A stretch of 60,036 nucleotides of DNA, the filler included, from Hausera hauseri (lineage: Eukaryota), in the NCBI GenBank assembly GCA_046269625.1. It is 12 parts of 12 records of this genome, joined end to end, with 100 filler letters (N's around TTAATTAATTAA, not from the genome) between each part and the next. Parts side by side here need not be neighbours in the genome. Positions count along the whole stretch, not along the records: positions 18,933 to 23,572 come from JBJURY010492354.1; 11 more parts are not named here. One strand, given 5' to 3'. The position numbers and the translations under genes were made by a program. Shown here piece by piece: positions 20,237 to 22,476 of the stretch (its first letter is position 1; every line of letters starts with the position of its first letter). A model generated the notes under the pieces. The model was not told where the DNA came from and made no database searches. It was given only the letters and a program-made list of their open reading frames with translations.

Positions 20237-20882
20237 TTAGCCTTTCTCGTAAGTCACTCTGGGTATCGATTCTCCTACTAGTTTGAGGATTTTCTCCAAG
20301 TAGTACGCAGTGGGCGTTTTTATTACGACTACTCGATTGTTTTTGCCACGAGAAAAATATTTTAACTGGGATGCCTCTGCTTGACATACTGGGCATGTCG
20401 TCTTTCCGTTAATCAGCGTCCAGTGTTCTAAACAGTCTCGACAGTGACGGTGTCTACAATTTTTGTTGGCTAGAATTACAGCCTTGCCATAAATTGGCTT
20501 CACATACTGGGTAAAAATTCCCAGTGTCGTTGTCCAGGTCACAATCGGTGACCCAATTTATTTCCTGAAATAATAATCCTTTTGGGTTCTTATACAGGTA
20601 TCCATGCATTTGTTTCTGGTCGGGGTCAGTCCATTCAATTATGGGTTGGGCGTCTAGGTCTGGGATTCCCATTTACTTGTACTGTTTCTTTATCTCTGGT
20701 CTGGTTGTCGCCGGTACAGTTATTCTCTTAGTGCCTGTTTTCGACTTGAATACTGGGGTTAGATATCTGCCTAACTTGGGTTCAATTCGTGCGTAAGCAT
20801 TTTCATGAAGTTCCAATACTGGCACTGTACGAATGTAAAATACTGCCTCATTTATCTTCCCACGACTTACATATTCTGCCAT
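20237..20882 (-). pseudogene. Accessory protein with C-terminal RING-HC finger
   Basis: (Y)PVCEANLWQ / AVILANKNCRHRHCRDCLEHW...TTCPVCQ across a frameshift; RING at about 20384-20513. Confidence 0.72.
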
Positions 20883-21185
20883 TATCAGGATGCTAGGGTG
20901 TTCTTCTGTCTTTACTGGCTTCGGTGGTTATTATTTTTTGTCTTGTGTCCTTTTAAGAACATTTACTTCCGTAAGTTTTTCTGATATATTCTTGGTAGGA
21001 TGTTCTCTGCTTTGGGTTGATCCTTTTTCTTTCCTCTTCAAAAATACGAATATTGATTTCTTTCTTTTCTGGAGATGGGTCCCTAAATTTGGGCTTCTTG
21101 GTTGATGTTCCTTGATGGCTTTCCTCGATTTTTTTTTCGTTTTTACAGGTACTTGGAATCCATATGTAAGGTTACTTGATTTACG

Positions 21186-22476
21186 TTAGGCAATATCTTC
21201 TTGGTTTGAAACGGTAAATTGCATATTATTATCTTTGTTTGATACCGTAATTTGCATACTGTTATCCTTTTGGGGTTCGACAATTCGTATCGGCGAATAC
21301 GGATGAAATTGTTTTCGGTGGCGAGAATTCAACTCCTTTAAATTCATACTGTTCTGCAGCTTATTTTTGGGATTCAATGGTGACCATTCATGATCCCATT
21401 TGATTGTGGCATAAATATCGCGCAAGTATTGGGTTCTTTTGGTAGCAGACAGCTGTCGATTAATTCTGTAGTGGGTTTTGATTACGATTTCTATCATTGC
21501 CTTGAAGTGTGTTTCCATAGTCGTGGGATCAGGTCGATTTACATTATCCATTTTCTCTTTAATCTTGGGGTGAGCCCAAAATTCTCGTACTCCTACTATA
21601 TTTTTGGGTTTTATTCCTAGTTTGTCTATTTGTTCTTGGGTTCGGAATCCCGCAATCATACAACCGTACAAACAGCAGTTTAGTTCCATCTCTACAGCTT
21701 TTATGTCTTCCATTTATCAAATCTTCTTTTCTTATGCCTGTTATTTCCGCGAACGTTTCTTTAACACTTTTCCGAGAGGCAATCAATCTAAAATAAACTT
21801 CTATCCCGTTCATATCTCTAATCGAAACTTCAATGGGAATGGAATTTCCATCATCCCCTTCTCCGTCGTTTGAGCCAATTATGCGAACGTTTTTTCTATC
21901 CTGTACCAGTTTATATGACCCTAAATGTTGGTCTATTTGATCTTCCGTCGGATACTGATAATATATCAGGGGAGGCAGGGGTATGGTTGGGATTTTTTCA
22001 CAGGTAATTTCTATCATAAATTTTACATTTAGGGATGCGATTCTTAATTCCACTTCTTCTCTCGTCAAGCTTTCTCCATGTGTTTTAAAGGTACTGAATT
22101 TGTATTGCCTTCCTTTGTTTGTGTCCCAGTTTTGTTCAACCAATCTATAATAAACTTCCCCTTCTGCCAAATGTATATACACGTCACTGTGATGCCCTTA
22201 TTCAAATTTTAATAAATTTCTTAGGCTATAGACTCGGGCGTCTTCATTTTTCCTCATTGCATATAATCCCAACACTCGATTCTCTTCGGCAATTCCTTTT
22301 AGATGGCTAAGAATTTTGTCCACTTTATTGTATTTGATTGTTGTCTCGTTCTGTAATTCCAGGTTAATTTGTCTATAGATTGCTTTGGAATTTGGGATGA
22401 TGATGACTGCGTTCTCTTCTAAAAATCCTTCGATATCCATGTAGGAGTTACTGCTGGTTGCCATAATACTAACCAA
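21186..22476 (-). pseudogene. Accessory protein with REX4/ISG20-like DEDDh exonuclease fold
   Basis: IIGSNDGEG...PIEVSIRDMNGIEVYFRLI...ETFAEITGIRKEDL.NG...VEMELNCCLYGCMIAGF resembles RVS.VN..G..VYD.FV...T..SGIR.EDL...V...L.G.ILVGH. ORFs 22198-22476 and 21559-22182 are in frame across a single TAA. Confidence 0.7.

Follow-up and report, generated by a model that had tools for sequence, protein, structure and literature searches.

Most of the additional genes in LTR retrotransposons of animals are env genes, and among the restriction factors of jawed-vertebrate hosts is PML, a RING protein with an N-terminal RBCC. The PXL of PML-1 is a pseudo-exonuclease that binds nucleic acid, Plex9 and gar PML are DEDDh nucleases, and PML-I promotes proteasomal degradation of L1 ORF1p (PMC13659232 and PMC10123124, in the portions available). 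Exonuclease cargo has been described in the Juno and Vesta LTR retrotransposons of bdelloid rotifers, in which ORF3 is of the DEDDy type with intact catalytic residues and, in the accessible part of the report, an unproven function (PMC5408684). The giant gypsy elements Burro/GYPSM1 of planarians have, between gag and pol, an Env that is related to the fusion proteins of mononegaviruses (PMC6431247, as excerpted), and errantiviruses with the order GAG-ENV-POL and an env of the HSV/gB type occur in Platyhelminthes, Nematoda and Bryozoa (PMC13524379, likewise in part). The arenavirus NP is a DEDD-family exonuclease that has been turned against host RNA sensing (PMC7968707, in the text available). 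Retrotransposon accessory genes and rotifer exonuclease cargo are known; what is new here is a variant in which a dead DEDDh-like domain is fused to a RING finger. The first-pass annotation of this DNA had named both rotifers and nematodes as precedents for exonuclease ORFs in LTR elements; the rotifer ORFs stand, though as DEDDy and catalytically intact proteins (the same rotifer report, in part), and no nematode example was found in the literature searched.

The window (the whole 60,036-nucleotide stretch of Hausera hauseri DNA that was analysed) consists of 12 contigs of 4-6.4 kb spliced via artificial N44-TTAATTAATTAA-N44 spacers, with 11 linkers in all (for example 18833-18932 and 23573-23672), so that the order of contigs across linkers is meaningless. 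Decayed retroelement pieces make up most of the 12 contigs according to Pfam. Contigs 2 and 3 (4345-14056) form a related pair, 80% identical over 2.7 kb, with Pfam matches to dUTPase (12773-13177, E 1e-20), a TBP-like protein (11481-11921), MATH (4618-5091) and, weakly, a P-loop, and the pair may be a cargo block, either DNA-virus-like or of a giant element. A second Ty3/gypsy-type pol (RT, RNase H and integrase) is present at 1-3480 and 35069-38589 in two copies that are 84% identical. The accessory gene that concerns us is confined to the minus strand of contig 5 (18933-23572, 4.6 kb), which belongs to a repeated family: run X1 has 6212 contigs, and run X2 390, that match it at 80% identity or above, and the relatives in run X1 amount to thousands of contigs at 80-99% identity.

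Along its minus strand contig 5 presents, in order, a membrane-protein gene, a broken frame, a polypurine tract (PPT), an LTR, a PBS-like site and a probable gag start. The membrane-protein ORF (22552-23572, minus strand) is the 3' part of a gene that is broken and truncated by the contig end; it matches no Pfam family, and its product has a Cys-containing ectodomain, a single TM helix (22647-22591) and a short basic tail. An FN3-like reading of this protein, made by eye only, was set aside, being without Pfam support. On the same strand, the PPT lies at 20156-20167, where the final codons of the accessory gene overlap it, and is followed by an LTR of 743 bp (19413-20155) that has TGTTAT...ATAACA as its 6-bp terminal inverted repeat. 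A site that resembles a PBS in sequence only (19393-19410, minus strand) begins two bases past the LTR. The marks of a Ty3/gypsy-type LTR are thus present in contig 5, namely TG...CA ends, a PPT before the LTR and a PBS-like site after it. The probable gag start (18933-19091, minus strand, beginning at 19091 and truncated by the contig end) has no match in Pfam and resembles the gag-like ORF in contig 9 only weakly (7 of 15 residues, E 0.017 in a pairwise comparison). This single LTR links the 3' end of the element to the PBS-like site and probable gag start (19410-18933, minus strand), an arrangement that could be due to tandem elements with a common LTR, to a one-LTR circle or to collapse in the assembly.

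The first-pass annotation had placed its cargo inside the element, and this is correct, as the gene lies between the TM helix of the membrane protein and the PPT and LTR. It had also described the cargo as immediately inside the 3' LTR and ending at 20237. The gene does adjoin the LTR, but it lies upstream of it with only its last 8 bases within, and it extends from about 22464 to 20148, past the PPT and into the LTR. Contigs of run X1 diverge from contig 5 at three points in particular (61 of them at 20152, 24 at 20214 and 36 at 22482), and these relatives share the end of the membrane gene and the PPT region and differ in the cargo slot and the LTR body. The differing sequences are either diverged homologues or other cargo.

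The protease, RT, RNase H and integrase regions are absent from contig 5, where the contig ends, and present in contig 10. Sister contigs provide links to the parent element: the membrane-protein ORF is homologous to a post-integrase ORF of contig 10 (46993-46628, tblastn E 5.6e-18), the pol region of contig 10 is 71% identical in DNA to that of contig 6, and the RT of contig 6 is closest to that of Ty3. Contigs 6 and 11 encode, upstream of protease and RT, a fusion glycoprotein of chuvirus-like type (PF24664, E 9e-23 to 3e-8; 26690-27889, minus strand, and 51827-52237, plus strand), giving the order gag-env-pol; none was seen within contig 5. From these links the parent was probably an env-bearing Ty3/gypsy element of gag-env-pol order with two genes at its 3' end, a layout assembled from separate contigs, and two further ORFs, for the membrane protein and for the pseudo-nuclease-RING protein, appear to lie downstream of pol. 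The env gene of contig 6 contains a 122-bp internal duplication (27366-27487 and 27954-28075, 89%). The post-integrase membrane ORF of contig 10 (46628-47350, minus strand) has a signal-peptide-like start, and its product is unrelated by Pfam to the chuvirus-like env; the element family may carry two surface proteins.

The accessory gene itself (20148-22464, minus strand) is decayed and was recognised as a unit through an intact relative. Among 1.84 billion representatives, a full HMMER search that took the natural piece 21714-22197 as its query returned only two proteins: P0003, 870 aa long (E 2e-38) and encoded on a 16-kb contig, and P0004, of 333 aa (E 6e-35). Each is represented by one ENA sequence, and a search for shorter relatives of P0003 yielded P0004 alone from 1063 candidates. 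Searches for the locus among viral contigs with the contig 10 integrase, among metagenome contigs and among phages found nothing. Residues 47-870 of P0003, in which the frame is open over 870 codons, are collinear with 22455-20151 of the window (tblastn E 2e-122 for the gene). The gene has an ATG at 22464 and a stop at 20150-20148, and encodes in order an N-terminal domain, a pseudo-exonuclease, a basic linker, an uncharacterised domain, a RING-HC finger and a tail. Its reading crosses the PPT and ends 8 bases into the LTR, and the C-terminal QGGEML of this stretch, read over the PPT and the first LTR bases, is also that of P0003. Collinearity and common ending together make the exonuclease-like domain and the RING one ORF, and not two cargos as had first been supposed; by its QGGEML ending, P0003 presumably occupies the equivalent place in its own element.

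The N-terminal domain (21919-22464, minus strand) is 43-48% identical to P0003 and is also present in P0004. Read as a 2OG-Fe(II) oxygenase-like barrel, it found no match in E. coli AlkB, Pfam or PDB, and the region is poorly modelled. The Lys/Arg-rich linker (20934-21383, minus strand) is poorly conserved, with 26-36% identity to P0003 and gaps, and in P0003 contains 34 Lys and Arg residues in 170 aa. A conserved pre-RING domain follows (20514-20927, minus strand), 46-50% identical to residues 601-757 of P0003 and without a Pfam match.

The window copy has five internal stops and at least three frameshifts (near 21710, 20480 and 20290), and such damage is what would be expected if fragments of host genes had been captured and were only being carried along, without function. 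At three of these stops most of the run X1 depth reads otherwise (among 40 of 349 rows listed), so that those breaks are private to this copy. Yet no host-like homologue of the protein occurs among the 1.84 billion representatives, and the 870-codon frame has stayed open at 40-55% identity with the end of the ORF apparently fused to the PPT in both copies, while thousands of related contigs at 80-99% identity are found in run X1. Hitch-hiking without function is on these grounds quite improbable. The domains of the window copy and P0003 are moreover 38-58% identical and the linker only 26-36% with gaps; this better conservation of the domains, with the open frame of P0003, indicates that selection has acted on the predicted dead domain.

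The pseudo-exonuclease domain (21384-21900, minus strand, with the frameshift near 21710) was recognised through P0003. Pieces of the window by themselves gave no exonuclease match in Pfam, PDB or a set of 5.8 billion, and the two halves of the domain in this copy scored at shuffle level against E. coli DnaQ and RNase T. Residues 232-424 of P0003, by contrast, matched DnaQ (E 1.1e-4) and the PolC exonuclease (E 4.8e-4) in PDB, two of the four matches at E<=10 and the only ones below E 1. With the family profile A3 all four matches at E<=10 were DEDD nucleases of the DEDDh type (PolC exonuclease, DnaQ, ISG20L2 and SDN1), that to ISG20L2 being gapless across about 80 positions. Matches to the dnaQ/PolC entries of NCBIfam had E values of 0.004-0.011, and an Atlas search, taken as a lead only, placed an RNase_T cluster on top (score 0.89) and arenavirus NP clusters third. 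The exonuclease-like domain of P0003 had no match in Pfam, and pairwise profile comparisons did not link it significantly to DnaQ and RNase T of E. coli (shuffle z 3.6 and 2.4). The REX4/ISG20-like kinship proposed in the first-pass annotation therefore holds through P0003 and the profile, both of which lead to DEDDh proteins, and not through the window pieces alone.

Structure prediction, put forward with that annotation as a check on the DEDD fold, gave AlphaFold models of low confidence (mean pLDDT 36 and 46). Fold searches with them returned no significant exonuclease match and nothing at Z>=5; human ISG20 did come first, at E 1.2 and TM 0.16. Models of this quality would neither favour nor oppose a nuclease fold. 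If the likeness had arisen by chance in a domain of another fold, the missing Pfam match and the weak fold searches would be natural enough, but DEDD nucleases came first in five kinds of search and the register agrees across the strand and the ITGI loop and on through the next helix and strand, and we regard coincidence as very improbable indeed. Judged by its sequence, the domain is very likely of DEDDh ancestry.

The catalytic residues are another matter. The three motifs map to 21882-21865 (Exo I), 21650-21627 (Exo II) and 21452-21423 (Exo III), all on the minus strand. At Exo I the window copy, P0003 and P0004 read IGSND, IAINT and LAVNL respectively, against IDIET in the DnaQ match, so that the Asp has become Gly, Ala and Ala and the Glu has become Asn in each. 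No acidic residue stands at the position aligned with the Exo II Asp in the window copy or P0003, and P0004 ends earlier. The His and Asp of Exo III are both replaced, LSATKR and LSATKC being aligned with HGALLD of DnaQ and HSALYD of RNase T from E. coli. The placement of Exo III comes from a multiple alignment in which Exo I is off register by a few columns, together with an ungapped scan in which it ranked first of 92 positions in the window piece and second of 854 in P0003.

The acids had been described at first as partly lost; alignment of Exo I-III across copies, suggested at that stage, instead leaves no canonical catalytic residue in the window copy or P0003. As aligned, all five positions are non-catalytic in both, a loss at the level of the lineage, and since the Exo I Glu has given way to Asn in every one of the three copies the loss is older than the decay of the window copy. 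The early suggestion that the domain may only bind RNA gains weight, as the catalytic positions are predicted to be gone from the intact relative as well. The exonuclease domain of P0003 is neutral in charge (24 Lys and Arg, 24 Asp and Glu), which would not argue for RNA binding.

The domain might still be a nuclease that uses other residues, as is debated for Maelstrom, a DEDD derivative described both as an endoribonuclease and as RNA-binding only (PMC7968707, in the text available). Each of the three copies does have acidic residues after the Exo I position (GEDEK, GEGDD and AENEE). The substitutions at the five canonical positions differ between copies, however, and the three copies have no conserved cluster of His, Cys or acidic residues in replacement, so that non-canonical catalysis seems improbable. 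In contig 9, two degenerate exonuclease-like stretches were noticed by eye at 43524-44900 (plus strand), between the gag-like ORF and an env-like start. Scored with the family profile they reached only E 0.008 (43524-44246) and 0.16 (44225-44740), a profile search of the whole window gave 0.6, and Pfam, NCBIfam, PDB and Atlas had no match to them; as further exonuclease domains they are leads.

The RING finger (20384-20513, minus strand) is of the RING-HC (C3HC4) type, and here the first-pass annotation proved sound. The natural ORF 20240-20557 matches Pfam zf-C3HC4 above the cut-off (E 2.6e-6), and the half-motif C-x-H-x2-C-x2-C...C-x2-C occurred in none of 500 base shuffles of contig 5. The window copy is split by the frameshift near 20480, which leaves the first Cys pair in a separate frame (20513-20502), and it keeps seven of the eight zinc ligands, the first having been lost. 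Over 62 residues its C-terminal half shares 58% identity with P0003. In P0003 the C3HC4 spacing is complete, with all eight ligands (C747, C750, C766, H768, C771, C774, C787 and C790) and a match to zf-C3HC4 at E 2.6e-7. Val749, Trp778, Pro788 and Arg791 of P0003 stand at what we take to be E2-binding positions, and the window copy has Gln at what is presumably the linchpin position following the last Cys. The modelled RING aligns with those of TRIM30 and TRIM23 at Z 4.0-4.2, the model being of low confidence.

A nuclease shape that has been kept, catalysis that has been discarded and a RING that has been fused point to a function of binding and tagging. On balance we think it probable that the protein is an adaptor-type ubiquitin ligase, whose dead nuclease domain would dock on RNA or on an RNA-bound protein and whose RING would recruit an E2 enzyme, the partner being tagged with ubiquitin if the predicted E3 activity is real. 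The tagged partner would most plausibly be a host RNA-silencing or RNA-decay factor; that choice of target, taken alone, is speculative and rather doubtful. The anti-silencing or anti-immunity module proposed in the first-pass annotation is likewise a speculative reading. A more specific form, in which small-RNA or silencing complexes are bound by the dead DEDDh domain and delivered to the proteasome through the RING, the protein being an RNA-sensing, counter-silencing ligase, seems to us unlikely. In this form the protein would be a mirror image of the host restriction factor PML-1, and its gene, like retroviral nef, spans the PPT and enters the 3' LTR. If it were true, this element lineage would have its own dedicated anti-silencing gene.

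The protein could instead serve the RNA of its own element, in export, packaging or 3'-end protection, with the RING structural, engaged in self-assembly or acting as a ligase for the element's own proteins. A dead 3'-end nuclease would suit RNA end protection, the linker is basic, an action on the RNA ends of the element has been proposed for the rotifer DEDDy ORFs (PMC5408684, in its available portion) and Cer1 encodes an accessory RNA-export protein (PMC10309623, likewise). We nevertheless hold this to be a credible but less likely account, as the RING keeps the residues that we take to bind E2. P0003, a natural and soluble protein, offers a concrete means of asking if counter-silencing ligases, such as viruses have, are also carried by animal retrotransposons.

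The gene can be compared with several described systems. With Juno and Vesta it shares a 3'-5' exonuclease domain of the DnaQ superfamily, encoded by an additional ORF towards the 3' end of an element of the Ty3/gypsy type. ORF3 of those elements is RNase D-like, of the DEDDy type and intact, whereas here the domain is DEDDh-like, has lost its catalytic positions and is fused to a RING and two uncharacterised domains; the main text of that report, as available, mentions neither RING nor ubiquitin nor zinc (PMC5408684). Burro resembles the probable parent element in having env between gag and pol and in its accessory domains linked to ubiquitination (AIR1 RING-type, MATH, BIR and SUMO-like), but these are within an ORF1 polyprotein of 4,900-5,100 aa, and the excerpt mentions neither an exonuclease-like ORF nor a 3' pseudo-nuclease-RING ORF (PMC6431247). 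The GAG-ENV-POL errantiviruses are matched by sister contigs 6 and 11, with the PF24664 fusion protein upstream of pol; the text and supplements, in the portions available, mention neither exonuclease nor RING (PMC13524379), and in the present element two ORFs apparently follow pol. The arenavirus NP differs in being an active nuclease without a RING fusion, where here a dead domain is joined to a RING (PMC7968707, in part). No description of a pseudo-nuclease-RING fusion was found in the full-text literature searched, a scope outside which lie subscription journals, Repbase and bioRxiv supplements. No search gave homology to PML, which is host-encoded and has the opposite domain order to this element-encoded protein, so that the comparison is one of analogy only. 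The closest functional analogy is nonetheless with PML-1 (PMC13659232 and PMC10123124, as available), a RING-bearing protein with a catalytically dead, DEDDh-derived domain that binds nucleic acid, as the domain described here may do.
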